35,621 nt of DNA. Origin: a bacterium (GTDB taxonomy: Bacteria > CG03). The position numbers and the translations under genes are program-made. Under the pieces are notes generated by a model that had not been told where the DNA came from, ran no database searches, and was given only the letters and a program-made list of their open reading frames with translations. This document shows positions 12,122 through 35,250 of the stretch, in pieces. The stretch's first letter is position 1; each line of letters begins with the position of its first letter. The stretch covers positions 1 to 35,621 of the forward strand of contig VMTI01000114.1 in assembly GCA_013791675.1 (NCBI GenBank), in the 5' to 3' direction.

Positions 12122-12946
12122 ATGGCATTTCCATGGTTAGCGGTAGCAATAGCAGCTTCGGCTTATGCAGGATACAAGGGACAGAAAAGTCTGGCGGACA
12201 AAATGAATCAGCCACAGGCGCTCCAAACCCCGGAACAGGAAGCCGCGGCAAAATACCTCTTGGCTTTGCTACAGGGTAATGCTCCCACAATTCCCACGGC
12301 AGGCGTCGCGGGAATGACCGGAGTAGAGGGAAGCGCGCAATCAATGCTCGAACAGTATATGGCCGCTCCCACTGGCACAGGATATCAAACAGGACTGTCA
12401 GAGCTTGAAAAGACGGTCGCTGGAGAAGCATACGACCCCTACACATCACCTTACTGGCAGGCATTAAGGGAAGGGTCAATGGCTGATGAAGAACAGGCAG
12501 TAGGCGGACTTCGCAGAGGCTCACAAATGGGCGGTATGTTTTATTCCGAGCCGTCCGGCCGGACAGAAGCAACACTCCGCTCGCAATATGGCACAGGCAG
12601 AATGCAAACGCTCGGCGGATTAGCCGAAACCGAAAGAGGACGGCAACTCGCGGCGATACCACAGCTTATGCAATACTCACAGCAGTCACCGGAACTTTAT
12701 AAAGCACAAATGGGGATGATGTATGGCGGACTACCCAGAGAGATTGAGCAGAACAAATTAAATGCTCTGTATCAGCAACAGTATGGGCAGACGATGTTAC
12801 CCATTGAAATAGCGGGAACATTAAAAGGCACTCCGTATTATTCAAGTAATCAGCAGCAGGGGCAAACGCCCTTCGCCTCGGGTATGGGCGCGGCAGGGCA
12901 GACCGCCACCATGATAGCGACGCTTAAGCAATTGGGACTGTTCTAA
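12122..12946 (+). CDS. DNA ejection/internal virion protein 1
   Basis: A/G/Q-rich, hydrophobic N-terminus MAFPWLAVAIAASAYAG, YDPYTSPY motif; AGGAGG RBS; position. Confidence 0.65.
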   Translation: MAFPWLAVAIAASAYAGYKGQKSLADKMNQPQALQTPEQEAAAKYLLALLQGNAPTIPTAGVAGMTGVEGSAQSMLEQYMAAPTGTGYQTGLSELEKTVAGEAYDPYTSPYWQALREGSMADEEQAVGGLRRGSQMGGMFYSEPSGRTEATLRSQYGTGRMQTLGGLAETERGRQLAAIPQLMQYSQQSPELYKAQMGMMYGGLPREIEQNKLNALYQQQYGQTMLPIEIAGTLKGTPYYSSNQQQGQTPFASGMGAAGQTATMIATLKQLGLF

Positions 12947-12955
12947 GGAGGAATA

Positions 12956-13801
12956 ATGCCAAATAGAAACATACAGCAAAGCCCGTGGAACCAGAATGTG
13001 CAGGCGGTGTCACAATTCCTTGAAACGCTGAACAACCTCAAAAAACAGCAATATGAAGGCGAACTGATGAAGCAATACGCTTCACAGGTCAGTCAGGAAA
13101 CCGACAAAAAGAAACTGCCCGAAATTATGAAACTCGTTGAGGGCGGAAATCTGACAGGCGCTCTTGAAATGGCTCTCCCTTCAATGGAGGCGCCCGCTAT
13201 TATGCAACAGAGGCAGGCGCCACAGACAGGCGGCTTTCTTTCACGGCTCGGCAATACCCTCAATCCCGTAGGCCAATATCGCGGCACCGGGCTGACACCA
13301 ACAGAGGCAACGATAACTGACGCTCGCGCCGGACAGACATCAAAGGCGCTGACACTGATAAGGAACATGCAGGCGCTGTTGGAAAGCCAAACTCCAAAAG
13401 CCGAAACAGAAGCGGCGCGCAAAAGACGAATGGCCGTTCAGGATATTGCCACATCACTGCAGAGGGGCTGGTGGAAGAATAAAAAGGGAGAAACGCTTGA
13501 TGTAACCAGCTCTGACCCGAATATGGTGATATCTGACATGGCAAGGGATTACGGCATTTCGGAAAGTGACCCCAGCGTTGTCGCTATCAAGAAGCAGATT
13601 AAAAATATAAAACCCGCACAGGCGAGAAAAGGAAAATGGAACCCGTTTGTCGAAAAGGCAGCGACACCATACGGAATAGAACTGAATAAATCGCAGAAGA
13701 CAACCTATAAATCGGCAAATGAAATAAAGAAGGCGTTTGCCGAAAATAAAATAACCGCTGTCGAGGCAAAGCAACAGTTGCTGAAATTCGGGTTCAAATA
13801 A
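12956..13801 (+). CDS. DNA ejection/internal virion protein 2
   Basis: Helical Q/A/K-rich 281 aa between ejection protein 1 and the giant gene; AAGGAGG RBS. Confidence 0.55.
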   Translation: MPNRNIQQSPWNQNVQAVSQFLETLNNLKKQQYEGELMKQYASQVSQETDKKKLPEIMKLVEGGNLTGALEMALPSMEAPAIMQQRQAPQTGGFLSRLGNTLNPVGQYRGTGLTPTEATITDARAGQTSKALTLIRNMQALLESQTPKAETEAARKRRMAVQDIATSLQRGWWKNKKGETLDVTSSDPNMVISDMARDYGISESDPSVVAIKKQIKNIKPAQARKGKWNPFVEKAATPYGIELNKSQKTTYKSANEIKKAFAENKITAVEAKQQLLKFGFK

Positions 13802-16800
13802 TGGCTCTATCAGCGGATGAATTCTTGGGAATAAAGCCGAAGCGAAAAGCGCAGTCGGCTGACGCATTCCTCGGTATCAAACCGTCCGCAGATGAATTCC
13901 TTGGAATACAGGAAGAACAGACCCCCAAACCATACGCCGGACTGACCCCGGAGCAAATCCAAGTGGAAAAGGAACGGCAACGGCAGGCCGGGACAATGCC
14001 GCAAACTCCGCAGGAACAATTTATACCCATGCCCGAAGGCGGCCCGCGCCGGGATGTATTCCAGCAACCGCCGCAAATACAACCGCCCATAGCGCAGGCG
14101 CCGGGAGCAATACAAATACCGCAGGCAATGCAAATGCCGACACCACAACAGCAGGGAATGCAAATGCCGTCAATGCCCGTGCCTCAACAAATGCAGCCAC
14201 AGCCCGGACCGCAAATGTTACCAGAGCAAGTGGAGCAATTAAGGCAGTCGGTACAGCCGGGGGAAATGGCAAAGATGATGTGGCAGGGCGCCGTAGAAGG
14301 CGGAGCGACCGCGGCTTCCGGTTTTACGGGTATCTACAAAGTGGGCGAACAAATAATCAAGGGCGAAGATTTGCTGACATCGATGCAGACCGCCACAGAC
14401 GCAATTCAAAAAGGACAAACTCTCGGAGATTTATTAAGAGAGGGATATGAGCCACAAACAAAAAGTGTATTCCAAAACTTTGTCGCTTACGCCGGACGAG
14501 ATTTGACAGCATGGGCTCTTGATACCATAACCAATCCCAAGGAACTCGCCGAACTTTATTTATGGTCGAAAGGTATAGGGATGATAAGGCGGGCAGGAGT
14601 AACCGGAGTAAATGCTATTGCGGAAAAATTCGTGGACAGCCCCGGAGTGCTCGGAAAACTATCCCGCGCGGGATTAGCGGAAAGAAAGCTCGCCGATGTA
14701 TTGCCGAAATATACCGAAGCCGACGCGGTGGCGATCAGGAAGTTTTTTTACAACGTGGACAATAAATTTGGTAGGGGCGCCGCAGATAGAGTATGGAGAA
14801 GTTTATACGAAAAAGGCAAGACATGGGAAAAATCCCGCGTGACGTCGTTAATACAAAAAATAAAGGGCGCTGGCGCAGAAAAGAGAACCGAACTATTGGC
14901 AAAGGAAATCTTGGGGCAGGTAAAAAAAGCACCTGTGCAAAGGGTATCAGAGGGAATAACAGGCGGAGAGGTAAAGGCGCGGCTCGGTCAATGGGGTGGC
15001 GGTGGAATCGGGAAAATCAAAACACCGAAGGGCGCCTCAACAGCCCTTGAGCAGATTGACGACCTGATAAAAACAAGGGCAAGTTTGCCGACAAAACCAA
15101 CGGCTGAAATGCCGAACCCTGACGCCGTGCTGAATGACATCACAGGCGCGATAAACAGCGCCGTAAAAGCCGCCGGAGAATACTTCAAAAGCGTGGGAGA
15201 AGAAGCATTCAGATATGCGTCCGGCGAAACCTTAAAAAACAAAATTATCGACCTCGTAAAGAAAAACCCCGAACTTAGGGAACATCTTGATATTCAGGTG
15301 CTTATGCCCGCCGCAGTATCTCCCGCAGCAAAGCCCGCAGAGGTTAAGCCCGCCATTGTATCAGAAGAAGCGCCCGAAGAAGAATACGTTGCCCCCACCG
15401 CCGAACAAGAGGAAACGGCGCGAATACTCGGCACGGCAGAGCTCACAAAAGAGGAAATCGCGCAGGGAAAGCAGGCAAGCGTAGGACGGCTGATATCCAG
15501 TATAGCCAAAACCGAACAGCGCGGCAATCCTTCAATATCATTTGCAGACCTCGTACAAGCCGGAAATATAGGAACCATGAAGGCCTATAAAAATTATATC
15601 CCCGGGGAAACGAAATTTTCAACATATGCCTACAAATCTATACGCTCCGCCATAAGAGAGGAAATAGCTCGGCAGAAAAACCTTATAACCTATCCACAGT
15701 CCGTGCGCCGAAAGCTCAATAGGGTATACAAAGCAATTTTTGAAATTCAACAGGACACCGGAATAGTTGATAGAATACCGCCAACATCGCGCATCGCCGC
15801 CAGAACCGGAATGCTAAATAAAGAAATAGATGAATTGCTCTCCACACAATTAACCCGCATGGAAAAACTTGAACAACAGGAAGAAGGGCAGAAAACGACC
15901 TATATTGAAACATTACCCGGCACAGAGGCGCGGCAGGTAGAAATAACCGAAATTAAAGACAGGGTTTCTCACCTGACGAAAGGACTATCCGAAAGAGAGC
16001 TCCAAATAATTGATTTAAAATATGGACTGACATCCGGCAGTACAATGAATGTGCGCGATATTGCCGATGAATTTAAAATATCAAAAACAAGAGTCGGTCA
16101 AATAATAGATATCGCCATAAGCAAGATGAAAGCCCGGGCCGGAATTACAACCGAAGCCACCGACGAACAAATAACAATGCTTTTCGAACATAAAAGGGCG
16201 CTAACGGAAACAGTGCAAACTGAACTCACCTTCGGAACTACGAAAAAAAGAGACGCCGGCGCGCTGGAAATGATTAAGAATATGGATCTGAACAAAGAGC
16301 GAGAGCAGGTAGTATTAAAGGAAATAAAAATCAAACATATAAAGACCGAGGGCTGGAAAATAACTGACGACAAAAGCGCCGTGAAATTCGTCAATCTTAT
16401 TCGCCACCCAGGGATAGAACATTTCACAATAATATACACGGACAAGACCGGGAAAATAATTACATACAAAGTATTCTCCAGCGGCGCCGTGGATTATGTG
16501 GATGTAAAAGAGCTATACCCGATACTCTCAAGGGATATGAAGGCCGACCCCAATATAGTAAACTTTTGGATAGGACATAACCATCCGTCCGGCAACCCTG
16601 AGGCCAGCACCAATGACAGAATTTTAATGAAAGCTCTGACAAAAATACCAAAATTCGCGGGACATATAATCACCGACCATAAGACATACACTTCTATCGG
16701 AAAAGACGGCTCCGAGCGTCTGAAACAGCAGACGCAAAAACTCGAAGACTGGAGTGGAGTAGAGAGCAGCATAAAATCAATAAACGATATTGCCAATTCA

Positions 16801-19800
16801 TTTATGGCGCTAACCAATAAAGACGCTAAAATGGCGGTGGCTATACTCACCACAAAACAGCAGAATACAATAGCCGCAGAGCTGATAAACGAAAAAGATT
16901 TATCAAAAGAAATGCTTGATAAATTGGAGAAAAAATACGGAGCCTCCAACATAACAATAGTATCGAATTTCAACATAAAAAATCCCGAAAGTGCCGGAAT
17001 TAAAAAAAGCAAGTGGGTGACTGAATACAACATTTACAACAGAGAGAAAAAGAAAATAACAGCAGAACTGGCCGAGCCCGCGTTCCGCGTAGCGGAAGAC
17101 GAAAAGGATAATCTCGGTGACTTCTCATATCTTCATACACCGGAAGAAACGGATATCCTGACTCCCACAAACGAGGAAATACAAAGGGAATGGGCTGGAA
17201 TAACCAGAGAGGCGCTGAATATTTGGAACAAAGAAAGAGAAACAAATTTTTTCTATATGATAGAACATGGCGAAAATCCATTCGGAGTAACAGGTTCGGA
17301 AGACCCGTCGTTACCGCCACCACAGAGAGCATGGATAGCCGATGGATTGGGCGGAGAATGGGACGCGTTGCCGGATTTCGTCAAAAAAAAGCTCAACCAG
17401 GCAGATATCCGATCCAAAGCATATAAGGCCACACACGCCGATACAGGCGGAACCGACAGATATACCGAGAGCATGGGGATAGATGATTTCAATACCGTGA
17501 TAGACGCCCTGCATAAAGTGAAACCCATAGGCAAACGCCCGACCGTTGCCGGCCCGGTAGATCATGACTTCATAAACCATTATTTTACATCGCCTGAAGG
17601 CCAGAAAGCATTGAGGGATAACAGGGAAGGCGGCATAACAAGCAAAGACGTCAAAGAAGAAATAGCGCGCATGGCAAGAATTATGATACAATGGGATGAG
17701 CAGGCCCCTATCATTCAACCCACTGGAAACAGCAAAGTGCCTGTCGCGGTGTACAGACGAACTGTCGAAAACACACAATTCAAGAAAGATAACTCGCCAA
17801 TGCAGTGGGCTGGCGCAAAAGACCAAATGCTTGGATATATCCTGAACATTCTCGGCCTGCCAAGCGAACTGAATAAAGTGACGGCCGCGGGACTTGAAAA
17901 ACTATCCCGCTTTGAATATGTCTATGACGTATTCGGGGGCTCGGGTTATATGACACTGCTTGCGCAAGAACTATTCAAGGACGCCGAAACAAACCTCAAC
18001 GAACTGGACGCCGACATGCAAAAGATATGGGCAACCATAAAAACCAACCCGGAAGGCGTAAAGGCGCGAATAGCCGAATTAAGCACGTGGATCCATATGC
18101 CCATGAAAAGTGTTCCTGTAGATTGGTGGAATCATCTCAAAGAGAAATTCGGCAAATATTATTGGGCGACCGATGAACTATGGACAGCCGCAACGATATT
18201 AAAAAACAACACAGGGCGTGACACTACAACAAAAATATCTCCAACCAAAGTCCACGAAATATGGAACTCCATAACCCCATACAGCCGGAAACTTAATAAA
18301 GCAAATATAGAACAAAGGGACGCCATAGAAATAATAGACGAAGCCCTAAAATTTCCACAGAACAAAGCGGAAAAAACTCTACTTATACTTGACCCTCCAT
18401 ATCTTTGGACATCAGGATACAAGCACGGCGCCAACTTCGAAAGACCCGCCGGATTTATGGAACTGCTCGATAAGCTGGAACAATTAAATAAAAAGGGAAT
18501 ATCCTTTATGTTTTTTAATTCAGAACCGGCGTCAGTATTCCCACGCGTCATATACGACTGGTCGCAATACCTGAAATTCGACGAAATGCAGCGGAGACTA
18601 AATGAACTCGCCGAAATGCCCGGTATGACAGTCCTTCGCATGGTGGCCCCGGCTGGCGTAGCCTCGTCTAAATTTGTTCCGAGAAAAGAAATAATCATCA
18701 CCAACCTTGAAACCGGAGGATATAAAGCAGGAAAGATAAAGAAACTCCCGTGGAGTAAAGTATCGGACTACATTAAGGTCACGAAAATCGGAATTGAACT
18801 GATAGGACAAGAAATAAAAGGCGCCCCCATAGAAAACCCCCTTACCACCAAACAAAAGAGAATGATCGCGGTATTGGCGAAAAACACTCCGTTCCAGTGG
18901 GAAGGCGATTACACTCACGAATTCCGGCAATTCGCCGAAAGGACAATTGGGAAAAAGCGCCTAACACTGATGACCGAAACCGAAGGCAAAGAACTCATCA
19001 GCGCCATTATGAAATACAAGAAAATAAACCGCGAGATAACCAACAGGACGCGAACAATGAATATGTCGCCGGCACTCTTGAAACAACAGATACACTCAAT
19101 ATTTCCCGACAAGCGCCGGATATCCGAACTTAACGACGAACAGCTCAAAATACTGAATGAATCGCTTACCCTATATGAACACACCGAAAGTGTCCCCATG
19201 CTTCATCTGATACGATACACTTCGGACTGGCTCGGCACATGGGCGGGCAGACAGAAAAGCCCAGCAGCAATGAACCTATACCACTCATTCAAAAGCCTTG
19301 AAGCCAACACAAAAGACGGCAGGGAATGGCGACTGAAACTGATACAGCAATTCAGAGAAGTATTCGAGGGAATGAACGCAAAACAGCGGGAAAAGATATT
19401 CAATTTTATGCACCGACCCAAAGGCACGACAATGGCTGAATTTATGGCAGAACGCGAAACCTATGGCCTGACAGACGCGGAAAAGAAAGCGGCCCTGCAG
19501 GCCCGCGAGCTATGGAACCGGCTATTCAAAGCCGCCGGCATGAAGGGGGAGAGATATTGGAAAGAATACCAGCCCCTCATCTTCCGCATGCTCAAAGACC
19601 CCGATACCGTAATAAAAGAATTCCGTCACCTTCCAAAAAAAGAGGTCGAGATGTTCTTCGAGAAACAGAGAATAGCCGAAGGCGACTTCATACTCGCCGG
19701 CGCCGAACAATTGACAGACCCCATAGAACTGTTTGAAATATATTCTGCGGGAGTGGTAAAAAAGAAATACATATGGCCGGCCGCGGCAAACGTGGAGAAA

Positions 19801-21252
19801 TACTTCCCGCTCGTTCCCAAAACCGTGAGAAACGCGATGTCATATATTTTGAATGATTTACTCGGTAAACAACACCCATTAGTAGAACAAATTGACGCCG
19901 GACTGCAGCGCGCCGTTCAGGCGGCTATTGACAACAAATTGGGGAGAGCAGTTAAAACCGAAGAAGCCCTCAACTGGCTCGGCTTTACAACCCGCGGGAG
20001 AATGATTGACGGAAATATATCGACACTCCGGGACTTGGTATATGCCGACCTGATAGGAACACTCGGATCAGCCATAAAGAATACCACGCAGGAAACACAT
20101 ATAATCGCGGAATATGGCGGAGTAAAATGGAGTCGCGCGGCCTGGCGGAGTAAAACCGCAAAAGGCAGACAGGAAACAGACGAGGCCGATATCTATACCC
20201 TCGGCGTTGGCGTTAAATTCAGCAAAGGCAAAGGCGCTATAGGCGAAGCTTCTCAAGTAATGACAACCCTGTTCAGAGCAAAAGACAAAGGCAGTCGCCA
20301 GAAGGCATACCTCTGCGGAATAATAACGGCAGAAGACTGGGTGCCTAAATATGAAGCCGGGAAGATAACGGCAGACGAATTGGCGAGCAAACTAAAATTC
20401 ACATTGAGAACAGACGCTCAATACCAAATAGGAATGATGGTTATACTGGACGACCCAAAAGCGTATACCGAACCGGTTATCAATAACCTGACAAAAAGGG
20501 TAAGAGATAAAATACTGAAACTGAAAGAAACCGACCCCATTGCCGCAAAGATATTCTATCTCGGTCACCTTTCCGGCTATTGGGCGCAAGCAATGACACA
20601 ATACCCATATTACGCCGAAGAAACGGAAGCGCTTTATCGCGGGCCGGCAGGTAAACTGCTGGGGACATTCGGAACATGGCCTCCCCGTTTTGCCGCTATG
20701 GTAAACCGGTGGGCTCACGGCGGGGCTGACGGACGCAAGGCATTCATCAGATATATCCTGCAATGGATTTTAATAATAACAGCAGGTTCGACGATGGGTA
20801 TCAATTTCAAGAAATGGATAGGCCCTGCATCGTGGAGAATAGGGAACGGTTTTGCCACTGTACTTGGTGCCCCCGGTTATCTGGCGTTGGCTATCTCAAG
20901 TTATGTAGGCAGTATTATGACCGACAGTAAATGGGATTTAACAAAAGCAAATGATTGGATGTATAAAATGAGAGGAAGTATACGCGCCCCCGGACAAAGG
21001 CAAATCAAATCAACTGTCGAAGCCCTAACCACCCCGGGATTAACAGACTGGGAAAGATTAAAGATATTCACGCAAATGCCCCAGACTGAAGAATTTTCAG
21101 AGAAGCGCCGGAAGATAAAGCGAGATGTAAAAAAGGCAATAAAAAGTAAATCAACATACCAGGGCGGAACAGTACGAACCGGATCGTCCGGCGAAACCGT
21201 GAGAAGCGGAGGAACAGTAAGCACCAGAAGCGGCGGAACCGTGAGGAGATAA
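13801..21252 (+). CDS. giant polyvalent ejection-type protein (2483 aa) with sigma70-like, RadC/JAB and Dam-like N6A MTase domains
   Basis: Third gene of the ejection cluster. Sigma ~15480-16140; RadC ~16357-16700 (HNHPSG at 16576); MTase ~17794-18708 (DVFGGSG at 17926, DPPY at 18391); helical C-terminus with hydrophobic segments ~20740-20920. Confidence 0.9.
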   Translation: MALSADEFLGIKPKRKAQSADAFLGIKPSADEFLGIQEEQTPKPYAGLTPEQIQVEKERQRQAGTMPQTPQEQFIPMPEGGPRRDVFQQPPQIQPPIAQAPGAIQIPQAMQMPTPQQQGMQMPSMPVPQQMQPQPGPQMLPEQVEQLRQSVQPGEMAKMMWQGAVEGGATAASGFTGIYKVGEQIIKGEDLLTSMQTATDAIQKGQTLGDLLREGYEPQTKSVFQNFVAYAGRDLTAWALDTITNPKELAELYLWSKGIGMIRRAGVTGVNAIAEKFVDSPGVLGKLSRAGLAERKLADVLPKYTEADAVAIRKFFYNVDNKFGRGAADRVWRSLYEKGKTWEKSRVTSLIQKIKGAGAEKRTELLAKEILGQVKKAPVQRVSEGITGGEVKARLGQWGGGGIGKIKTPKGASTALEQIDDLIKTRASLPTKPTAEMPNPDAVLNDITGAINSAVKAAGEYFKSVGEEAFRYASGETLKNKIIDLVKKNPELREHLDIQVLMPAAVSPAAKPAEVKPAIVSEEAPEEEYVAPTAEQEETARILGTAELTKEEIAQGKQASVGRLISSIAKTEQRGNPSISFADLVQAGNIGTMKAYKNYIPGETKFSTYAYKSIRSAIREEIARQKNLITYPQSVRRKLNRVYKAIFEIQQDTGIVDRIPPTSRIAARTGMLNKEIDELLSTQLTRMEKLEQQEEGQKTTYIETLPGTEARQVEITEIKDRVSHLTKGLSERELQIIDLKYGLTSGSTMNVRDIADEFKISKTRVGQIIDIAISKMKARAGITTEATDEQITMLFEHKRALTETVQTELTFGTTKKRDAGALEMIKNMDLNKEREQVVLKEIKIKHIKTEGWKITDDKSAVKFVNLIRHPGIEHFTIIYTDKTGKIITYKVFSSGAVDYVDVKELYPILSRDMKADPNIVNFWIGHNHPSGNPEASTNDRILMKALTKIPKFAGHIITDHKTYTSIGKDGSERLKQQTQKLEDWSGVESSIKSINDIANSFMALTNKDAKMAVAILTTKQQNTIAAELINEKDLSKEMLDKLEKKYGASNITIVSNFNIKNPESAGIKKSKWVTEYNIYNREKKKITAELAEPAFRVAEDEKDNLGDFSYLHTPEETDILTPTNEEIQREWAGITREALNIWNKERETNFFYMIEHGENPFGVTGSEDPSLPPPQRAWIADGLGGEWDALPDFVKKKLNQADIRSKAYKATHADTGGTDRYTESMGIDDFNTVIDALHKVKPIGKRPTVAGPVDHDFINHYFTSPEGQKALRDNREGGITSKDVKEEIARMARIMIQWDEQAPIIQPTGNSKVPVAVYRRTVENTQFKKDNSPMQWAGAKDQMLGYILNILGLPSELNKVTAAGLEKLSRFEYVYDVFGGSGYMTLLAQELFKDAETNLNELDADMQKIWATIKTNPEGVKARIAELSTWIHMPMKSVPVDWWNHLKEKFGKYYWATDELWTAATILKNNTGRDTTTKISPTKVHEIWNSITPYSRKLNKANIEQRDAIEIIDEALKFPQNKAEKTLLILDPPYLWTSGYKHGANFERPAGFMELLDKLEQLNKKGISFMFFNSEPASVFPRVIYDWSQYLKFDEMQRRLNELAEMPGMTVLRMVAPAGVASSKFVPRKEIIITNLETGGYKAGKIKKLPWSKVSDYIKVTKIGIELIGQEIKGAPIENPLTTKQKRMIAVLAKNTPFQWEGDYTHEFRQFAERTIGKKRLTLMTETEGKELISAIMKYKKINREITNRTRTMNMSPALLKQQIHSIFPDKRRISELNDEQLKILNESLTLYEHTESVPMLHLIRYTSDWLGTWAGRQKSPAAMNLYHSFKSLEANTKDGREWRLKLIQQFREVFEGMNAKQREKIFNFMHRPKGTTMAEFMAERETYGLTDAEKKAALQARELWNRLFKAAGMKGERYWKEYQPLIFRMLKDPDTVIKEFRHLPKKEVEMFFEKQRIAEGDFILAGAEQLTDPIELFEIYSAGVVKKKYIWPAAANVEKYFPLVPKTVRNAMSYILNDLLGKQHPLVEQIDAGLQRAVQAAIDNKLGRAVKTEEALNWLGFTTRGRMIDGNISTLRDLVYADLIGTLGSAIKNTTQETHIIAEYGGVKWSRAAWRSKTAKGRQETDEADIYTLGVGVKFSKGKGAIGEASQVMTTLFRAKDKGSRQKAYLCGIITAEDWVPKYEAGKITADELASKLKFTLRTDAQYQIGMMVILDDPKAYTEPVINNLTKRVRDKILKLKETDPIAAKIFYLGHLSGYWAQAMTQYPYYAEETEALYRGPAGKLLGTFGTWPPRFAAMVNRWAHGGADGRKAFIRYILQWILIITAGSTMGINFKKWIGPASWRIGNGFATVLGAPGYLALAISSYVGSIMTDSKWDLTKANDWMYKMRGSIRAPGQRQIKSTVEALTTPGLTDWERLKIFTQMPQTEEFSEKRRKIKRDVKKAIKSKSTYQGGTVRTGSSGETVRSGGTVSTRSGGTVRR
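15480..16140 (+). other. sigma70-family domain (regions 2, 3, 4) inside the giant protein
   Basis: RLISSIAK..DLVQAGNIGTMKA..KFSTYAYKSIRSAI..PPTSRIAARTG..LSERELQIIDLKYGL..IADEFKISKTRVGQIIDIAISKMK is colinear with RpoD RLVISIAK..DLIQEGNIGLMKA..KFSTYATWWIRQAI..EPT.EE.A..LT.RE..VL..RFG...VTRERIRQIEAKALRKL. Confidence 0.92.
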
Positions 21253-21255
21253 AAT

Positions 21256-21423
21256 ATGGCACTATGGACAATAACAACCCGCGACACGACTGACTGGCCG
21301 TTGAGCAAAAGAGGCGGCTGGTTCACGGGGCAGTGGTTTATATCCGGTTGGTTTTCACCAGACGGTGTAATCGATAAATGGACAAAGACAGTAAAATCTG
21401 TTATAAGCTGGGTAGTAAAATAA
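21256..21423 (+). CDS. 55-aa Trp-rich small protein
   Basis: MALWTITTRDTTDWPLSKRGGWFTGQWFISGWFSPDGVIDKWTKTVKSVISWVVK*; GAGGAG RBS; fills the gap exactly. Confidence 0.6.
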   Translation: MALWTITTRDTTDWPLSKRGGWFTGQWFISGWFSPDGVIDKWTKTVKSVISWVVK

Positions 21424-21435
21424 AGGAGGCGGAAT

Positions 21436-21726
21436 ATGGCAGGCATCGACACGACTAACGGATATTTTAGAAAGCCGGCGTACGGCACATCCGGCGAAGC
21501 AGAGAAAGCCCTGTTTGACGCAGCTCTCGACCGCGCGGATGCGGAAATAGCATCACTAAAAGCCAGACTTGACGGGGGCGAAATAAGACGCCTGACGACC
21601 GCTCAAATACAGGCGATATGTTCCGGCGGAGACGCCACAAAAGTAAGGATATTTTTTAACACCTCCCGGGGAACGGAGGGCACTTTGGAAATGTGGATTG
21701 GGTGGTCGCTTGCGAAGCCGCTATAG
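21436..21726 (+). CDS. hypothetical tail-associated protein
   Basis: AAGGAGG RBS; directly before the tail fibre. Confidence 0.65.
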   Translation: MAGIDTTNGYFRKPAYGTSGEAEKALFDAALDRADAEIASLKARLDGGEIRRLTTAQIQAICSGGDATKVRIFFNTSRGTEGTLEMWIGWSLAKPL

Positions 21727-21735
21727 GAGATATAT

Positions 21736-23964: not shown

Positions 23965-24311
23965 AAAAACTATTTACTCTTTTAGCATTATTTTTTCTTG
24001 CCTTATTTTCTATTGCGGCGAGGGCATCTCAATGGAGTAAAGTTAGAAAAGCATACTTAAAAGCTCATCCTGTTTGCGAGGTTTGCGGTAGTAAGAAAAA
24101 ATTACAGGTTCATCATATAATTCCTTACGCAGAGGATAAGTCGCTGGAGCTTGAGCCGAGCAACCTAATAACGCTTTGCAGTCGGTGTCATTTGATTTTT
24201 GGACACTTTGGAAACTACAAAACATATAATCCTTTTGTTCGGGAAGACGCCGAATGGTTTAGAAAAAGAATGAAAAACGCGAAGATTATTGACGGAGATT
24301 TAGAAACGTGA
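23961..24311 (+). CDS. HNH endonuclease with signal-peptide-like N-terminus
   Basis: CEVC..LQVHHIIP..NLITLCSRCH; N-terminus MKKLFTLLALFFLALFSIAARA. Confidence 0.85.
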   Translation: MKKLFTLLALFFLALFSIAARASQWSKVRKAYLKAHPVCEVCGSKKKLQVHHIIPYAEDKSLELEPSNLITLCSRCHLIFGHFGNYKTYNPFVREDAEWFRKRMKNAKIIDGDLET

Positions 24312-24490
24312 TTGCCGACGAAATACGGGAACGGTTGGAAAAAATAGAGAAGGCCCTCGAACGCCTCGATATGGGGAATGTTATTTACAAGGAATTGACG
24401 GGTCATTATAATCGGCTGAAGGATGATATGAAAAAAGATATCGATGAGATAAAAAAAATACTTGATGGAGGTGATGATGGCGACACTTAA
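24308..24490 (+). CDS. small coiled-coil protein
   Basis: GTG start overlapping the HNH stop, GGAG upstream. Confidence 0.55.
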   Translation: MIADEIRERLEKIEKALERLDMGNVIYKELTGHYNRLKDDMKKDIDEIKKILDGGDDGDT

Positions 24491-24716
24491 ATTGAACGGT
24501 TACGCCCCGTGGCTTATGCTGATACTTGTTTTAGCGACAACGGCGGGGGCAATTCTGGTAAAAACCGGGGGCGTAAAAGAACGGATAAACAACAATTCCG
24601 CGCGAATATCCGGCAACACGGCTGACATAAAAGAATTGGACAAAATCTTCAATACTACGATAAAGCAAATATCAGAGGACTTGGGAAAGATTAAGCAGGC
24701 AGTGGGGGTTAAATGA
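24477..24716 (+). CDS. holin-like membrane protein
   Basis: GGAGG RBS; one TM helix (WLMLILVLATTAGAILV) followed by a coiled coil; upstream of the endolysin. Confidence 0.5.
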   Translation: MATLKLNGYAPWLMLILVLATTAGAILVKTGGVKERINNNSARISGNTADIKELDKIFNTTIKQISEDLGKIKQAVGVK

Positions 24717-24796
24717 TTTTCAATATCCCGGAATTTTGGTATAGTGTAGCAGGGGCATTGATTGTTGTATACGCAATAAGGAGTTTACTGAAATGA
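24713..24796 (+). CDS. 27-aa single-TM peptide in the lysis cassette
   Basis: MIFNIPEFWYSVAGALIVVYAIRSLLK*; overlaps the upstream stop and the endolysin ATGA. Confidence 0.45.
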   Translation: MIFNIPEFWYSVAGALIVVYAIRSLLK

Positions 24797-25176
24797 CGAC
24801 AGAACAATGGATGACGATTAAGCATTTCACCTATCGTGAATTTGTATCACCAGATACCGGCGAGGAGAATATGGATTATCGTATGGTTCATTTTCTTGAT
24901 ATTATGAGGCAGATATTAGGCTTTCCGATAGTGATAACCAGCGGGTATAGAACGCCGGAATATAATGCGAAGATTGGCGGAGTGGCGGACAGCGCCCATT
25001 TGCGCGGACTGGCGGTTGATATAAAATGCGTGAGCTCATTTACGCGCTGGAAGATAGTAAATTTTGTTATGAATTGGTATAATGGCGTAGAGGTAAGAAG
25101 GGCTGGGATTGGCGATACTTTTCTGCATATCGATATAGACAGCAGTTTGCCAAATCCCGTGATGTGGACATATTAA
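24793..25176 (+). CDS. endolysin, peptidase M15A family
   Basis: ITSGYR..N..IGG..SAHLRGLAVDI...FLHIDI Zn-peptidase motifs. Confidence 0.9.
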   Translation: MTTEQWMTIKHFTYREFVSPDTGEENMDYRMVHFLDIMRQILGFPIVITSGYRTPEYNAKIGGVADSAHLRGLAVDIKCVSSFTRWKIVNFVMNWYNGVEVRRAGIGDTFLHIDIDSSLPNPVMWTY

Positions 25177-25186
25177 GGAGGATATT

Positions 25187-25639
25187 ATGAAAATTGAAAT
25201 TGACATGAAGATTGTGAAAGATTTGGTGGCTCACATGAAAGAGCAGCTCGGCACGGCAGAAATGAAAAACAAATTCCTGCAAATCCGTACGGACTGGAAG
25301 GCCAATCCCCTGAAAGTCAAAGGATCCATCAAAGACTTCCTCGCGCAAATGCAGATAAAATTCGCTATGGTCGACATCTTCGTCACCACGGTTATGGCCG
25401 CCGCCGACAAAGCCTCGGCATTCTTCAAGGGAATAGGGCAAATAGACCCCAAAACAAAGACCGGGGCCGAATGCCTCGAGGCCGGAGCGCTATTCCTGGA
25501 CAGCGTGGTTAAATTCCCCATGTCCTTCACCGGCCGGCTCCTCGAAATGTTCGACAAGAAAATATTTTACTTCCTGCTCCAACTGTTCTTCTACTTCCAC
25601 AAAAAGAAGAAAAATGACGGCTATGTGATAGAGATATAA
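25187..25639 (+). CDS. hypothetical protein (lysis region)
   Basis: AAGGAGG RBS; hydrophobic C-terminal segment followed by KKKK. Confidence 0.65.
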   Translation: MKIEIDMKIVKDLVAHMKEQLGTAEMKNKFLQIRTDWKANPLKVKGSIKDFLAQMQIKFAMVDIFVTTVMAAADKASAFFKGIGQIDPKTKTGAECLEAGALFLDSVVKFPMSFTGRLLEMFDKKIFYFLLQLFFYFHKKKKNDGYVIEI

Positions 25640-25641
25640 CC

Positions 25642-26133
25642 ATGAAAAAGTTTACATATTATCTGGTAGCGATAGCTCTGTTTTCAACACAATGCCACGC
25701 ATGGTCATGGTTCGGCGCCGAATTCAAGAACGAAATGACCAAGCAGCAGAACAGCACCAACAAGCGCCTATCCGATATTAAGGCCGGAATCAATGATGTT
25801 CAGCTTAAGCTCGGAAATATCTCGCTGTCTCTCCAGGCCCAGGCAAACGCCACCGCAAAGGTTCAAGCCGGAATCGACAAGAGCAATACGCAGAGCGCCG
25901 GCCGCGATATTATCTCAACAGAGAACAACAGCACAGAACTGATGCTTAAAATCTTTGAGGGCGTCTCGGCCTTGTTTCTCGCAATGTTCGCTTTCATGAA
26001 GGCCCGCGTAAATGTGCTCTCGAAACAGAACGAATATCTTACCGAAAGCCGAAAAAAATATCAGGATCGCTTTCTGAAACTGCTTTCCCCGGAATACGAA
26101 AAACTCGTAGACAAGGAAAATCCCGAATCGTAG
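25642..26133 (+). CDS. membrane/periplasmic coiled-coil protein, possibly spanin-like
   Basis: Signal-peptide-like N-terminus, coiled coil, second hydrophobic helix (IFEGVSALFLAMFAFM); last gene of the lysis cassette. Confidence 0.5.
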   Translation: MKKFTYYLVAIALFSTQCHAWSWFGAEFKNEMTKQQNSTNKRLSDIKAGINDVQLKLGNISLSLQAQANATAKVQAGIDKSNTQSAGRDIISTENNSTELMLKIFEGVSALFLAMFAFMKARVNVLSKQNEYLTESRKKYQDRFLKLLSPEYEKLVDKENPES

Positions 26134-26212
26134 AACGAAAAAAAAGAAAACCCCCGCAACAACCGAAAATCTTTCTCACCCCCCTACCCCCCAGACGCTT
26201 TCGCATTCTGTT

Positions 26213-26244
26213 CTATTATGTGTCAGATTACCGGATTTGTCCAG
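26213..26244 (-). promoter_or_regulatory. phage-specific promoter motif, copy P1 (leftward)
   Basis: Minus strand CTGGACA-AATCCGGTAATCTGACA-CATAAT-AG. Confidence 0.75.
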
Positions 26245-26778
26245 CCCAACATCAAAATCCAAACATAAATTCCCCGATTTCACTCACAAATCAACAGAAA
26301 CCCCTCAAATTCGCTGTTTAAGCCACTTTCCCCCATTCAACGAGTAACGAGCCGATACTTTAACCATTATGCGAAATTTAAACCATAAAACCCCCCATAG
26401 CTTTTGAAATTAAACCAATGTCAAGACCCCCTCTTTGGCACTGGATGGCATATTATAGGGGTGTACCACGGTTCATCACTCGACCCAGTGCGCCCTATAT
26501 GGCGAGCCGACACCCCCCTCCCCCCCCTATGCAATGAGCAGAACAACGGCGACCGCGAAAGGACAGCACCAGGATCGCAGCACTACACACAGCACAGCAC
26601 AGGGCAGGGGCAGGCAATACAGGGTAGAGCCGGTTCGTAATACGCACGAGGTCGAGCACAGAGGCACGAACGACAGCGACGGCAGACACAGACACGCGGG
26701 AGAAGGCGAGCACAACAGACAGCAAGCGAAGCAGGGCAGTAGCGATAACGGCGGGGAGAGCGTGAAAATCAAGGCGTC

Positions 26779-26876
26779 GCAAGGACTTTCAAGCCCAAGT
26801 TGTGATAATGTTGATTATGTAAACTTTTAGAGACCGGAGAGCCCACGAAAATGCCGACAGGGCAAGGACTTTCAAG
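26779..26876 (+). repeat. 15-bp direct repeat GCAAGGACTTTCAAG (26779-26793, 26862-26876)
   Basis: Exact repeat on either side of the first dif-like site. Confidence 0.85.
26798..26825 (+). other. dif: dif-like XerC/XerD recombination site 1
   Basis: AGTTGTGATAA-TGTTGA-TTATGTAAACT: 11-6-11 layout, partial dyad, right arm matches the B. subtilis-type XerD arm TTATGTAAACT. Confidence 0.8.
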
Positions 26877-26935
26877 GGCAAATACTACTTAATACCCCTT
26901 AATACCCTTTCACGAAGGGTGCACGAACAGGGAAA

Positions 26936-26963
26936 AGTTTACATAACATATTTTACTTTCCGA
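26936..26963 (-). other. dif-like site 2, inverted, degenerate XerC arm
   Basis: Minus strand TCGGAAAGTAA-AATATG-TTATGTAAACT. Confidence 0.6.
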
Positions 26964-27270
26964 AGGACAGAGCCAAAAAAGAGGGCAAATCGTACCCCAA
27001 CGAACTCCCCGAAGCAGCGGCCGGCGCACCGAAGGGAAAAAGAAAGGCGAGCGAAAGCCGAAAGGCGGGAGCCGGGCGGGAGCCAGCAGTAAACAGCGAG
27101 AACAATAGAGATAGAATAAATAAAGAGACAACAACAACAACAAAGAGAAAGAACAGAACAAAGAGAACAGAACAGAACAGAACTAAGAACAGAACAACGC
27201 ACGCACGCGAAACAAGACGCGCGAAAGACAAGGGGGGCAAGGCTCGGGACAAAGGCTCGAACAAACCCGA

Positions 27271-27302
27271 CTGGACAAGAGGGCAAAAGCAACACATAAT
27301 AC
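27271..27302 (+). promoter_or_regulatory. phage-specific promoter motif, copy P2 (early genes)
   Basis: CTGGACA-AGAGGGCAAAAGCAACA-CATAAT-AC, ~70 bp upstream of the first early ORF. Confidence 0.8.
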
Positions 27303-27374
27303 AACAGCAGCGGACGACAGGACGCCGGAAAGAACGAAGCCGAGCGGACAGAAGCGGACGAAAGAGAGGACAAA

Positions 27375-28445
27375 ATGGAAGACAGAAGCGGAACAAAGAC
27401 AAAAAGCGAAATCAAATGGCTGGAAGAAGCGAAACACAACCGCTACCTAAGCCTGGCGGGAGAAGGGAGACTGCACACGCTGAAGTGGAACGAGGCACGG
27501 AAGGAAGGAGACCGCCGGAAGGCGGAAAGCGAGGAAGAAATGATAAACCACGAAACAGACAAAGCGGCGGCGCGCAACACCATCAAAGTCGGCGACACCG
27601 TAACCGTAGACCCACAGCTGACCACAGACCCCTACAACCGCAGAGGACAGAGCGGAACGGTAACGCAACTGATGGGCGACAAGGCCACGGTCACCTACGA
27701 GAAACCGCACGAGGCCTGCAACGGATACCGCACCAGGGCAGGCTACTACCACACAGACGCCCTGATAAAGCAGGAGCCGGAAGACGAAGGACTGCCGACA
27801 CCGGAGCAGGACGCGCAAATCGCCAAAGAGCGGAAAGCATACGAAGACACGGAGCGCGAGCCGGAGAGAACCAGAAAAGAACATCTCATCCACCAGTACA
27901 ACCACGGCGCAATCACGACAGCGGAGCAGAAGGAGCTGGACGCACTGGAAGCGAGGGAAAGAATGGACAAGAATTTCAAAGAGCCGGAGGACACGTTCAA
28001 CGGCAGGCTGAACAAACACGCAAAACCGAGCGACACACAGACAGAGCGGGTAAAAGCAGCCTACGAAACAGGGCTGGAACACGGCAGGGAAATCGCGGAG
28101 GAGGAAGCGGAAGAACAGCGCGACAACGCCACGATAGCCGGATACGAACAGGGCTACGAGGCAGGGCGCAAAAGAAGCGCGATCCGCGGAAACAAAGCGG
28201 AAGACGGAGCGGAGCAAGAAGCAGACGGCCTGATAGGAAAGGGAATCACCATCACCGGCCTGGACGAGCTGGGCTGGTGCGAAATCTGGTGGGCAATAGA
28301 CGCGGCCGTAATCAGCAGACTGGGCACAATGAAGACAGCAACGCACCAGGACGAAGTGGACTGGGCGACAAACGCCGTGAAGCAACTGCAGAACGCCAAA
28401 AAGCAGATAGGGAAAATAGCACATCCGATAGGGGCAGAGGACTAA
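27375..28445 (+). CDS. early protein, charged, with a KOW/SH3-like segment
   Basis: GAGAGGA RBS; IKVGDTVTV...GQSGTVTQL.GDKATVTY resembles a KOW/SH3 barrel; synonymous T avoided. Confidence 0.7.
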   Translation: MEDRSGTKTKSEIKWLEEAKHNRYLSLAGEGRLHTLKWNEARKEGDRRKAESEEEMINHETDKAAARNTIKVGDTVTVDPQLTTDPYNRRGQSGTVTQLMGDKATVTYEKPHEACNGYRTRAGYYHTDALIKQEPEDEGLPTPEQDAQIAKERKAYEDTEREPERTRKEHLIHQYNHGAITTAEQKELDALEARERMDKNFKEPEDTFNGRLNKHAKPSDTQTERVKAAYETGLEHGREIAEEEAEEQRDNATIAGYEQGYEAGRKRSAIRGNKAEDGAEQEADGLIGKGITITGLDELGWCEIWWAIDAAVISRLGTMKTATHQDEVDWATNAVKQLQNAKKQIGKIAHPIGAED

Positions 28446-28447
28446 AC

Positions 28448-28511
28448 GCCGAAACCCGGGACAGCAACCGGGTCCGCGGGAAACGGTCAATCCGCGCTGA
28501 TGAGGCAGACC
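28448..28511 (+). ncRNA. type II hammerhead ribozyme
   Basis: GCC-GAAA-CCCGG/CCGGG-TC-CGCGG/CCGCG-CTGATGA-GGC: full core; GUC cleavage after 28474; loop I GGTC can pair with 3' tail GACC. Confidence 0.92.
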
Positions 28512-28546
28512 ACAATACCGGCAGCAGGCCGGAAAGAGAGGAAAAG

Positions 28547-28783
28547 ATGAACGCGATCGACGCAAAGACAAAAAAGAAAAGCCGCCCATTCGTGCTGTGG
28601 GCAGACTGGAGAGATGCCAGCTCGCTGATGAGAACCCTGTGCCGGCTGACAAACAAGAGACCCCGGTGCTACAGATACATAAACACCGGAGCAGACGACA
28701 TCGCCGTGATAGTAAGCGACACCCGGCTAACAGAGAAAGAAGCGGACGCCGCATACTCGGCATGGATAAACGGGAAAGGCTAA
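28547..28783 (+). CDS. hypothetical early protein (78 aa)
   Basis: GAGAGG RBS before MNAIDAKTKK; the real part of the long track ORF 27416-28783. Confidence 0.65.
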   Translation: MNAIDAKTKKKSRPFVLWADWRDASSLMRTLCRLTNKRPRCYRYINTGADDIAVIVSDTRLTEKEADAAYSAWINGKG

Positions 28784-28818
28784 ACGAACCGCCGGACACC
28801 GGCAGAGGAGAGGGTAAA

Positions 28819-29139
28819 ATGACACACAAACTAATCATAATCAGCCTGCACGACGCACAAGCGGAATGCACCTGCGGACACTGGCGAATGATAGGAACAG
28901 GGGAGCGGAGCAAGAAAGAGATACGAGCGGAATACAGAAAGCACAAAAAAGGAGAAAGCACAATGGAAACAAACAAGACCGAAGTTTTCAAATCAGCAGT
29001 AGGCGACAGAAAGGGATGGGCATTTTCAGTAGGCAGGAACTTTGTATCGGCGCTCTACAAGACACAAAAGGAGGCCAAGCAAAAACTGAAAGCCTACTTG
29101 GGAACAGGCAAGTTTGACTGGTACGGGACTGCGGAATAA
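28819..29139 (+). CDS. hypothetical early protein with in-frame internal start at 28963
   Basis: GAGGAG RBS before MTHKL (CTCGH motif); second AAGGAG RBS before METNK. Confidence 0.6.
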   Translation: MTHKLIIISLHDAQAECTCGHWRMIGTGERSKKEIRAEYRKHKKGESTMETNKTEVFKSAVGDRKGWAFSVGRNFVSALYKTQKEAKQKLKAYLGTGKFDWYGTAE

Positions 29140-29155
29140 AAAGGAGGAAAGCAAA

Positions 29156-29404
29156 ATGAAGCAATGGAAAATCAACGTGTTCAAGGACTGCATCGTGGAA
29201 ACGGACGGAGAGAAAACGCGGATAGTATGCGAGCGCCCTAATTACAGAGGGTCGGAGGAAAACTTCGAGAAGGACGGAGCGCTCATCGCGGCCGCGCCGG
29301 AACTGCTTGATGCGTGTAAAATGGCAGTAAAAAAACACGGCGAATTTGATTATCTTATGAAGGCAATCGCAAAAACGGAAGGGGGCGAGGATGATTATCA
29401 TTAA
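29156..29404 (+). CDS. hypothetical phage protein (LIAAAPELL motif)
   Basis: AAGGAGG RBS; DGALIAAAPELLDAC motif common in small phage early proteins. Confidence 0.7.
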   Translation: MKQWKINVFKDCIVETDGEKTRIVCERPNYRGSEENFEKDGALIAAAPELLDACKMAVKKHGEFDYLMKAIAKTEGGEDDYH

Positions 29405-29570
29405 AATTGAAACAGAGAACGCAGCATTTGAAGCGCCGGACAAAGACCACGAGGCCGCGCGGATATTGCGGAAGCTCGCGGACAGGTTAGACCGTCACGA
29501 TTGGCCTGTATCGCTTTATGATATAAACGGGAACAATGTTGGAACAGTGGAGGAAAAAGAATATGAATAA
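29391..29570 (+). CDS. 59-aa phage protein
   Basis: MIIIKIETENAAFE...EAARILRKLADRL...DINGNNVG; missing from the ORF track; overlaps both neighbours. Confidence 0.7.
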   Translation: MIIIKIETENAAFEAPDKDHEAARILRKLADRLDRHDWPVSLYDINGNNVGTVEEKEYE

Positions 29571-29904
29571 TGAACTCAAATGCACAGACGAAATAGTCAA
29601 CGGAAGGCAGGCGCTGAAGCGGCATGACGGCCTGGTGGTATTCCCGGACGCTAACGACCCGGAATTGGACGCAATCCGCAAGAGCGCGCCAAAGAAGGCA
29701 GTCATACAAGCCGTGGCGATCCGCAGGGCACAACAGATAGCGCATAACTACGCGGAGAAATACGCGCCGGAACTCCTGCCGTATTTCAAGATAACCCCGC
29801 TGATAAACAACCGGCGCATGCGGAGATATTTGACAAGCGGAGCGCGATTGAAGCGCGAAAAACTGGACAAACGGGAAAATCTAACACATAATAGGGTGCA
29901 ATGA
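29563..29904 (+). CDS. hypothetical protein
   Basis: GGAGG RBS before MNNELK. Confidence 0.6.
   Translation: MNNELKCTDEIVNGRQALKRHDGLVVFPDANDPELDAIRKSAPKKAVIQAVAIRRAQQIAHNYAEKYAPELLPYFKITPLINNRRMRRYLTSGARLKREKLDKRENLTHNRVQ
29863..29894 (+). promoter_or_regulatory. phage-specific promoter motif, copy P3 (recombination/replication genes)
   Basis: CTGGACA-AACGGGAAAATCTAACA-CATAAT-AG. Confidence 0.8.
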
Positions 29905-35240: not shown

Positions 35241-35250
35241 GGAGAAAACA

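Follow-up and report, generated by a model that had tools for sequence, protein, structure and literature searches.

The genome of an incoming phage can be transcribed before any phage protein has been made by two known routes, that is, by the host holoenzyme or by a complete RNA polymerase (RNAP) injected with the DNA (as in N4-like, crAss-like and some jumbo phages). Phages also redirect the host core enzyme after infection with sigma factors of their own, which are small, free-standing products of early or middle genes and serve middle or late promoters. Here we analyse a stretch of groundwater DNA (the window: 35,621 nucleotides, contig VMTI01000114.1, our C209, one whole contig of a 2.14-Mb, 301-contig metagenome-assembled genome (MAG)) that is a nearly complete podovirus-type genome of ~36 kb, and in which a sigma-70-family module lies inside a giant protein of 2483 residues (P0001) encoded among the structural genes. 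We tentatively suggest that this protein travels in the virion and that its sigma module opens three early promoters (P1–P3) of the phage before any phage protein is present.

The giant gene is the last of a run of three genes and has the following parts (window coordinates, strand, description):

13801..21252, +: giant gene, a single open frame of 7452 nt for 2483 residues
13804..13908, +: triple short repeat at the N-terminus (S-A-D-E/A-F-L-G-I-K/Q), then a P/Q-rich linker, read from the translation
15406..16140, +: sigma-70-family module, residues ~536-780, regions 1.2/2.1 to 4.2 (Pfam, PHROG, NCBIfam, PDB and alignment A5)
16288..16698, +: RadC-like JAB domain, residues ~830-966 (Pfam RadC at 860-960; phrog_10276)
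17767..18522, +: Dam-like (D12-class) N6-adenine DNA methyltransferase domain, residues ~1323-1574 (phrog_56, phrog_1996)
18601..21249, +: C-terminal module of ~880 residues, common to giants with differing N-terminal parts (HMMER)
20740..20907, +: pair of hydrophobic segments, residues 2314-2332 and 2351-2369 (the two most hydrophobic 19-mers of the protein), then a basic tail

An earlier note on this DNA, made by a model from the letters and translations, had placed a sigma domain in the third gene of an ejection cluster and had put the locus forward as a candidate new system. The sigma domain and its place in the third gene of the run stand, while 'ejection cluster' is an interpretation rather than an observation, and the RadC/JAB and Dam-like methyltransferase domains had been overlooked. 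These two domains place P0001 among the polyvalent proteins, for which the describing paper predicts delivery into the cell alongside the DNA, where they would oppose restriction and 'jump-start transcription' (Iyer, Burroughs, Anand, de Souza and Aravind 2017; PMC5512222). By the same account, such giants join unrelated effectors (RadC/JAB and DNA methyltransferase domains are both listed) and are encoded beside head and packaging genes; P0001 likewise unites sigma, RadC/JAB and D12-type methyltransferase domains in one phage protein, with structural genes as its neighbours both in the window and in a second phage (G001, described below). The differences lie in cargo and chassis: the transcription cargo named there is the N4-like RNAP together with enzymes that modify the host, the main text of PMC5512222 contains 0 instances of the word 'sigma' (the supplements may list further domains), and the C-terminal module of P0001 belongs to no Pfam or PHROG family. 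We therefore regard the locus as a new payload in a known class and not as a wholly new system.

Other described systems share single traits with it. The virion RNAPs of N4 (gp50), crAss-like and jumbo phages are, as we propose for P0001, injected giants from among the structural genes that serve early promoters at time zero (PMC5512222); however, those are complete, host-independent polymerases, whereas P0001, in which Pfam, PHROGs and NCBIfam found no RNAP catalytic domain, would be a specificity subunit that borrows host core RNAP. With T4 gp55, SPO1 gp28 and gp34, phiEco32 gp36 and the factor of phage 7-11 it would share the character of a phage sigma-70-family protein that redirects host core RNAP, but its module is embedded in a structural-module protein and its candidate targets head the early region. 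The DarB-like giants (P1 DarB; Bcep22 gp75, DC1 gp67 and JC1 gp69) also close the structural module and carry a DNA methyltransferase, yet DC1 gp67 and P0001 show no detectable similarity in sequence, no sigma domain is annotated in DarB-like proteins, and no helicase family such as would mark a DarB-like protein was found in P0001 (Pfam, PHROGs). T7 gp14, gp15 and gp16 come from three genes in a row downstream of the tail genes, of which the third is the largest and bears enzymatic cargo (a transglycosylase in gp16), and have hydrophobic segments near the C-terminus and a basic tail (PMC8954989); they differ from the run in the window in that profiles show no similarity, that the first two genes of the run are similar in size and that its cargo would be directed to the cytoplasm and not the periplasm. 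T4 Alt, a packaged ADP-ribosyltransferase, is held in the head, injected and biases host RNAP towards early promoters (PMC5512222), but it modifies RNAP covalently, whereas P0001 would supply a stoichiometric specificity subunit. A literature search, which covered papers apart from their supplements, found none reporting that a protein of the virion, ejection or polyvalent kind contains a sigma domain.

The sigma module appears, on profiles and alignments, to be complete but outside every curated subfamily. The domain, which the earlier note had read as regions 2.1-4.2, aligns unbroken to primary sigma factors from region 1.2/2.1 to 4.2. Its best PDB match, SigA (7l7b_F), pairs residues 546-777 with chain positions 150-377 in one stretch, the PDB alignments reach region 4.2, and each of the 64 PDB sequences matched at E<=0.01 is a sigma factor. 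With TIGR02937, the NCBIfam model for the sigma70 superfamily, residues 562-778 reach 68.4 bits (cut-off 42.9), and the PHROGs sigma family phrog_351 matches residues 563-812 at E 1.5e-28. The check by Sigma70_r2, r3 and r4 that had been proposed gave a divided answer: Pfam Sigma70_r2 is clearly present (residues 562-626, E 3.5e-9, 36.8 bits, cut-off 24), Sigma70_r4 stops 0.2 bits below its cut-off (residues 728-777, E 3e-5, 23.9 against 24.1 bits), and Sigma70_r3 has no match in P0001, yet the alignment with SigA runs through region 3 unbroken and has conserved P and A columns there. The RpoD/SigA subfamily model of NCBIfam covers residues 536-777 (E 9.1e-27) at 94.1 bits against a cut-off of 384.5, and this score, together with the replacement of a tryptophan pair and of recognition positions, sets the module apart from the primary (group 1) sigma factors. 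Among the best 120 matches listed, its closest free-standing relatives are primary sigmas of many phyla (26-34% identity); to the RpoD of the bin itself it is 30% identical. In alignment A5, which holds seven sequences (the two phage modules and five cellular sigmas), the structural and core-facing columns are kept relative to the canonical RpoD of the bin and the other primary sigmas; invariant columns include D in region 2.2, F-S-x-Y-A in 2.3, I..P at 2.4/3.0, L..RE and G in 4.1 and A..K in 4.2. In a tree of sigma cores the two phage modules fall together on one side of a branch (SH-like approximate likelihood-ratio test, SH-aLRT, 99) and 47 cellular rows on the other, but the tree was built from a random draw of 45 of the 120 listed sigmas, with a careful search unfinished, and we give it no weight. 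The long profile of PHROG 351 (928 positions) was considered as a sign of known sigma fusions and rejected, its match at 514-746 fitting an ordinary long RpoD.

The fusion recurs in a second phage. An HMMER search of 1.84 billion representative sequences with the C-terminal module returned 27 proteins at E<=1e-3, the query included, in which the match forms the C-terminal end of proteins of 625-2595 residues. One of these, P0004 (2595 residues), is encoded by a 39-kb IMG/VR genome (G001) and carries a sigma module (residues 663-868; Pfam r4 33.9 bits against the cut-off of 24.1; PDB SigA E 2.4e-12), JAB, methyltransferase and C-terminal module in the same order as P0001. P0003 (1688 residues) has the methyltransferase and the C-terminal module after an unrelated N-terminal part, and P0009, P0011 and P0020 have the C-terminal module only, preceded by other sequence. 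As this module ends giants with unrelated N-terminal parts, it can be seen as a chassis with exchangeable cargo. P0001 and P0004 are 25-34% identical over three aligned stretches, and identity so low indicates that the sigma–JAB–methyltransferase–chassis fusion has been kept over a long divergence. The structural modules of the two phages are collinear, 16 of the 34 window proteins have a tblastn match in G001 (portal 47% and capsid 58% identity), and in both the giant gene is the third of its run (274, 281 and 2483 residues in the window; 337, 268 and 2595 in G001), which follows portal, capsid, SU10-type adaptor and other structural genes and precedes a probable tail-fibre gene. A scan of metagenomes added one relative, L019, which is 45% identical and collinear from the JAB domain onward, its 5' end being cut off.

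The enzymatic domains retain their motifs across these relatives. The Pfam RadC match of P0001 scores 39.3 bits against a cut-off of 22.1 (E 7e-10), and the HxH-x7-S-xx-D motif of the JAB domain is intact in P0001, P0004 and L019; the methyltransferase motifs DVFGGSG and DPPY are invariant in all four aligned relatives, and P0003 also has a Pfam MethyltransfD12 match. At their N-termini P0003 and P0009 likewise have two or three short acidic repeats followed by Pro-rich linkers, with a motif sequence that varies between proteins; these short acidic/hydrophobic repeats may be a packaging or docking signal.

Wider searches returned partial matches. Against 50,697 phage records, megablast with the giant gene found no match and tblastn with the whole protein found 23 records, each covering only residues 533-777 (<=10% of the query) and 0 covering 80% of it. 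A word-indexed search of proteins of 1365-4346 residues recovered the query alone, both among 6008 whole-length candidates and among 1661 sigma-region candidates. In IMG/VR, the sigma+JAB piece found nothing, the C-terminal module found G001 only, and methyltransferase plus C-terminal module found 16 distinct loci (that is, G001 and 15 that match only within the methyltransferase part); a capsid relative there (L001) is without a giant gene. A scan of GTDB genomes gave 39 pattern matches, of which 0 were confirmed. One of the 23 tblastn records, MT837335.1, holds a free-standing sigma factor and not a fusion, the match lying in an ordinary open reading frame (ORF) of 377 residues after one of 620 residues, a pair that we tentatively read as a bacterial primase–sigma operon.

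The promoters on which the argument turns are these:

26214..26244, −: P1, CTGGACAA-N13-ACACATAATA (hexamers 26243-26215), leftward, with an ATG 8 nt after the −10 hexamer
27271..27301, +: P2, same motif (hexamers 27272-27300), 74 nt upstream of the first rightward gene (27375)
29863..29893, +: P3, same motif (hexamers 29864-29892), with an ATG (29901) 8 nt after the −10 hexamer, heading the next gene block
596..624, +: promoter of terS (small terminase gene), TTGACA-17-(TGn)TATAAG, host-type, ending 5 nt before the terS ATG (630)
24384-24412: promoter of the lysis block, TTTACA-17-TATAAT, near-consensus host-type

The three copies of TGGACA-17-CATAAT that had been reported around the early region were recovered in full: a scan for exact matches to TGGACA-N{15,19}-CATAAT gives exactly 3, all with a 17-nt spacer, against 0.02 expected, and 0 of 100 shuffles reach 3. 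Once the sites are aligned, the conserved blocks prove longer than had been noted, CTGGACAA-N13-ACACATAATA being exact in all 3, and the window holds no further such site at <=3 mismatches. The 13-nt spacer core and the flanks are not conserved, and this restriction of conservation to two blocks agrees with selection on promoter elements better than with recent duplication. At <=2 mismatches the extended motif does not occur in the rest of the 2.14-Mb MAG, a result that is uninformative as ~0.1 sites would be expected by chance. Near-consensus host-type promoters precede the packaging/structural and lysis blocks, and the former has the consensus-like form already described (TTGACA-17-TATAAG with TG at −15/−14, just 5' of terS).

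Beside P1 and P3 lie small basic ORFs, 26039-26206 (−, 55 residues) and 29901-30044 (+, 47 residues), whose ATG stands exactly 8 nt past the −10 element; the former overlaps the 3' end of the gene at 25642-26133 in antisense. By this spacing both may be leaderless first cistrons and, as the ATG of terS likewise lies 5 nt past its −10 element, such cistrons may be the rule here.

Whether module and motif fit each other can be asked at the positions of regions 2.3/2.4, 3.0 and 4.2 that we take to contact the −12 base, the extended −10 element and the −35 element (numbering and roles after the genetics and structures of E. coli sigma-70). Here the phage module departs from the canonical RpoD of the bin: S and R occupy both the two region-2.4 positions presumably linked to the −12 base and the two region-3.0 positions presumably linked to the TG extension, and the recognition helix of region 4.2 reads K-T-R-x-G in place of R-E-R-x-R. 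The motif departs from the consensus by C at −12, ACA for TGn upstream of the −10 hexamer and G at the second −35 position. The changed recognition positions would then correspond to the changed elements of the motif, which is suggestive only.

The domain architecture, which the second phage shares, the place of the giant gene among the structural genes and the motif itself lead us to propose that P0001 is an ejection-type polyvalent protein whose sigma module opens P1–P3 before any phage protein is made, a reading that we prefer to its alternatives and to which we nevertheless give somewhat less than an even chance. The ~880-residue chassis, with its hydrophobic pair and basic tail, would carry the sigma, RadC/JAB and Dam-like methyltransferase domains on flexible linkers, and a few copies of the protein would be packed in the head and leave it with the DNA. 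The chassis would remain at the envelope or the DNA entry site, the methyltransferase would protect the incoming DNA, and the sigma module would capture host core RNAP at the point of entry, such that transcription would start at P1–P3, which flank and head the early region, before the synthesis of phage proteins; the packaging, structural and lysis genes, with their consensus-type promoters, would be left to host sigma. Release or processing of the cargo is one possible task of the JAB domain; nucleic acid or a conjugation-type defence of the host are other possible targets. That the module binds core RNAP, that P1–P3 are its promoters and that they fire at this time we infer from these features. 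The most specific form of the proposal, that a sigma factor packed in the capsid loads host core RNAP at private promoters whose specificity is changed at −35, at the extended −10 and at −12, we consider doubtful.

If the proposal is true, early transcription in this phage needs neither host sigma nor phage protein synthesis, and an injected specificity subunit acting on host core RNAP would be a third time-zero route, intermediate between the two known ones and much cheaper than a whole polymerase. Sigma factors would thereby join the effectors delivered by virions, in a compact study system, and a module of ~250 residues with three candidate promoters, diverged at the residues taken to read DNA, could inform how sigma specificity is encoded. 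Genome entry might possibly be coupled to transcription, although a pulling-in of the DNA by transcription is pure speculation.

A number of observations weigh against the proposed early sigma factor, and we set them out together with the alternatives that they favour. P1–P3 agree with the host-type sigma-70 consensus in 10 of 12 positions, and the host holoenzyme may need no help to read them. In A5, K-S (P0001) and K-Y (P0004) stand in place of the tryptophan pair of region 2.3, which could mean a loss of promoter melting and not a new specificity, and the substitutions at the recognition positions could equally mean a loss of DNA recognition. Sigma is the least conserved part between the two phages (~23-25% identity), the phage branches in the tree are very long (5.7 and ~10 changes per column) and their grouping unsure, and the complete sigma-bearing members known number 2. 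The co-occurrence of the sigma fusion with a private motif, which the earlier note had proposed to look for in homologous phages, failed in G001, the only other sigma-bearing phage available, and stands at 1 of 2. G001, whose sigma module is ~23% identical to that of the window and which has homologs of the first genes behind P2 and P3, contains no exact TGGACA-N15-19-CATAAT. With one mismatch allowed it has 4 sites, of which 2 or more lie within genes, and with <=2 mismatches the count is 23, against 11 for a reversed control; outside terminal and coding repeats no 6+6 bipartite word is repeated 3 times (one candidate lies in coding sequence), its 13 intergenic regions share no 9-mer, and a scan for consensus promoters gives 20 sites against 15.2 +/- 4.3 expected. 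A mismatch-tolerant bipartite count in this genome was swamped by A-rich low-complexity words and dropped.

These data can be accommodated by an RNAP anchor or decoy, which would have kept core binding and lost promoter specificity, and would sequester core RNAP (as host shut-off) or tether it to the entry complex while host sigma reads P1–P3. The distribution of change speaks for it: DNA-contact positions, the tryptophan pair included, have drifted, whereas structural and core-facing columns are invariant. However, both modules keep a full sigma-4 helix-turn-helix and region 2.4/3.0, which would be superfluous in a pure core binder; a Lys in place of the first tryptophan is common to both although they are only ~23% identical, a sign of constraint more than of decay; and the ACA upstream of the −10 hexamer and one base on either side of the −35 hexamer are invariant beyond what the host consensus needs. 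We consider an anchor or decoy rather unlikely; even so, a module with only this role would extend the known cargo of polyvalent proteins by a new kind.

The proposed injection is open to a different objection, that is, that the sigma module acts only once it has been newly synthesized. The giant gene stands within a late-type operon headed by the consensus-type promoter at 596-624, and fresh protein could act without injection: the giant, or a processed fragment of it (perhaps released by JAB), would redirect RNAP late, for example by re-firing P1–P3 or the antisense P1, and packaging would be irrelevant. P1 does point leftward into the end of the late operon, which the proposed mechanism leaves unexplained, and to our knowledge the characterised phage sigma factors (T4 gp55, SPO1 gp28 and phiEco32 gp36) are all made after infection, which counts for this alternative. 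Yet it offers no evident reason for the fusion to a 1700-residue chassis, methyltransferase and JAB in two phages 25-30% identical, and the motif sites head the early-type region (PD-(D/E)XK nuclease, RecT) and not late genes. On balance we think such late action unlikely.

Delivery by the virion is the remaining element of our proposal. That the giant protein is packaged and ejected with the DNA is suggested, from comparative analysis, by its gene position, the chassis-plus-cargo pattern, a gp16-like hydrophobic pair with basic tail and the analogy to DarB-like giants. In all four members compared (P0001, P0003, P0004 and P0009) the hydrophobic pair lies ~130-170 residues from the C-terminus and is followed by a basic tail, and C-terminal hydrophobic helices with a basic tail are reported for gp16-like ejection proteins in a review (PMC8954989). 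The three-gene run and the hydrophobic pair with its tail fit the pattern of ejection proteins, as weak and non-specific features. Portal and capsid of the window are distant homologs of those of the Bcep22-like phage DC1 (24.7% and 32% identity), whose structural module ends in a DarB-like gene of 4651 residues (gp67), and 51 unique peptides of a homologous DarB-like giant, JC1 gp69, were detected in virions purified on CsCl (PMC9144972, Table 6). Set against delivery, hhalign gives the C-terminal module probabilities of 1.25, 0.26 and 0.08% with T7 gp14, gp15 and gp16, its best PDB match is a designed helix bundle at E 0.043, the DarB-like giant DC1 gp67 has no phmmer match at E<=10, and the module falls in no PHROG or Pfam family; presence in the virion is read from the genes.

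P0001 could therefore also be a cytoplasmic multi-enzyme protein of anti-defence or replication that happens to lie beside structural genes, in which case the run would be no ejection cluster. The missing homology to known internal virion proteins (PDB, DC1 gp67, T7 gp14-16) is what this explanation draws on; against it stand a structural-module position conserved in two phages, a C-terminal chassis with interchangeable N-terminal cargo, the gp16-like hydrophobic pair with basic tail and the demonstration of analogous Bcep22-like giants in virions, and we regard it as improbable. An artefact, whether a chimeric assembly or a decaying pseudo-domain from host rpoD, deserves hardly any credence. 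The contig does come from a metagenome bin and its G+C dips to 0.44-0.445 over 15-18 kb, near the 0.451 of the MAG, but the frame is open over 7452 nt, the fusion is also in G001, contigs of two other runs span the sigma–JAB junction (16008-16469 and 16157-16492) with 0 differences, a second bin holds a 99.98% identical contig and the module is only 30% identical to the RpoD of the binned MAG.

The remaining genes are those of a compact phage, nearly all on the + strand. After terS come, in order, the large terminase, the portal, a probable scaffold and the major capsid protein; downstream of the capsid follow a 474-residue protein, the adaptor and more structural proteins, and then the run that ends in the giant gene:

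630-998, +: small terminase terS, P22-gp3-type, at the head of the gene order
7940-8515: SU10-type adaptor (Pfam 54.5 bits)
12122..12943, +: run gene 1, 274 residues, Gly/Gln/Met-rich, with a hydrophobic N-terminus
12956..13801, +: run gene 2, 281 residues, its stop overlapping the start of the giant gene

Run gene 1 matched no Pfam or PHROG family and is 33% identical to the 337-residue gene at the equivalent place in G001; run gene 2 matched no family either and found nothing in G001 by tblastn, where a 268-residue gene occupies the equivalent slot. On the 3' side of the giant gene lie a 742-residue protein with weak carbohydrate-binding matches, which is probably the tail fibre, then an HNH nuclease and an endolysin, and the early-type region holds a PD-(D/E)XK nuclease, RecT and DUF1064. 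Family scans of the window recognised no RNA polymerase, second sigma, other transcription factor, repressor or integrase. The gene adjoining the endolysin (25642-26133, +) encodes a protein of 163 residues whose N-terminus looks like that of a secreted protein or lipoprotein (residue 18 is Cys) and which has one C-terminal hydrophobic segment at residues ~100-126; its likeness to a unimolecular spanin would suggest a diderm host.

The start of the contig (1-280) lies inside the 3' end of a frame whose translation, read by eye with no family search, resembles the C-terminal end of a cytosine-C5 methyltransferase, and its end (35240-35621) is another open frame. If the cytosine-C5 call and the Dam-like domain both hold, the phage would have two DNA methyltransferases. 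A 36,739-bp contig on record encodes the same giant protein, from which it seems that ~1 kb of the genome is absent from the window. The genome of G001 has a terminal overlap (38923-38997 and 1-75) with a third near-copy of this ~75-nt sequence at 38776-38850, ~147 nt upstream, and a threefold 51-nt tandem repeat at 34351-34505 within a 158-residue gene between its terminase and portal genes.

The window has a G+C content of 48.3%, the bin one of 45.1%. Groundwater metagenomes contain near-identical DNA: in a survey of sequencing runs (19 rows, 11 studies, no RNA data set listed), contigs from 4 further runs of 4 studies were compared and most are at least 99% alike; they gave no genome ends and no transcript starts, and their differences are too few for a selection test. 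Among 26 genomes of the same phylum, 2 hold the phage, the source bin itself (G000) and a second bin of the same genus, whose contig (G007:C31; L042, L043) differs from the window at 6 of 35,594 nt (99.98% identity) and begins at the identical base, and for both of these reasons it is not independent evidence. The presence in two bins of one genus is a weak hint of the host or mere co-binning of related data sets. No spacer-like match joins the window to the rest of the MAG, the single match being of 22 nt at E 0.004.

Between the lysis genes and the early region lies a non-coding stretch of 1.2 kb (26134-27374), which P1 and P2 bracket, pointing away from it. Its + strand is strongly enriched in purines (AT skew as high as 0.67 over 27-29 kb), and it contains runs of C, short repeats of A and G and two direct repeats of ~47 nt (26752-26798 and 26835-26881). 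No Rfam family matched this stretch, in which the origin, the pac site or the genome ends may lie. Further downstream, at 28447-28514 (+), is a type II hammerhead ribozyme (Rfam RF02276, 44.4 bits against a gathering score of 37, full model 1-66), a counterpart of which was not found in G001 at the gathering threshold. Its CUGAUGA and GAAAC cores are intact, and it begins 2 nt past the stop of the first early gene (27375-28445), within the presumed P2 transcript; in that position, cleavage by the ribozyme would separate the first cistron of the early mRNA from the second.

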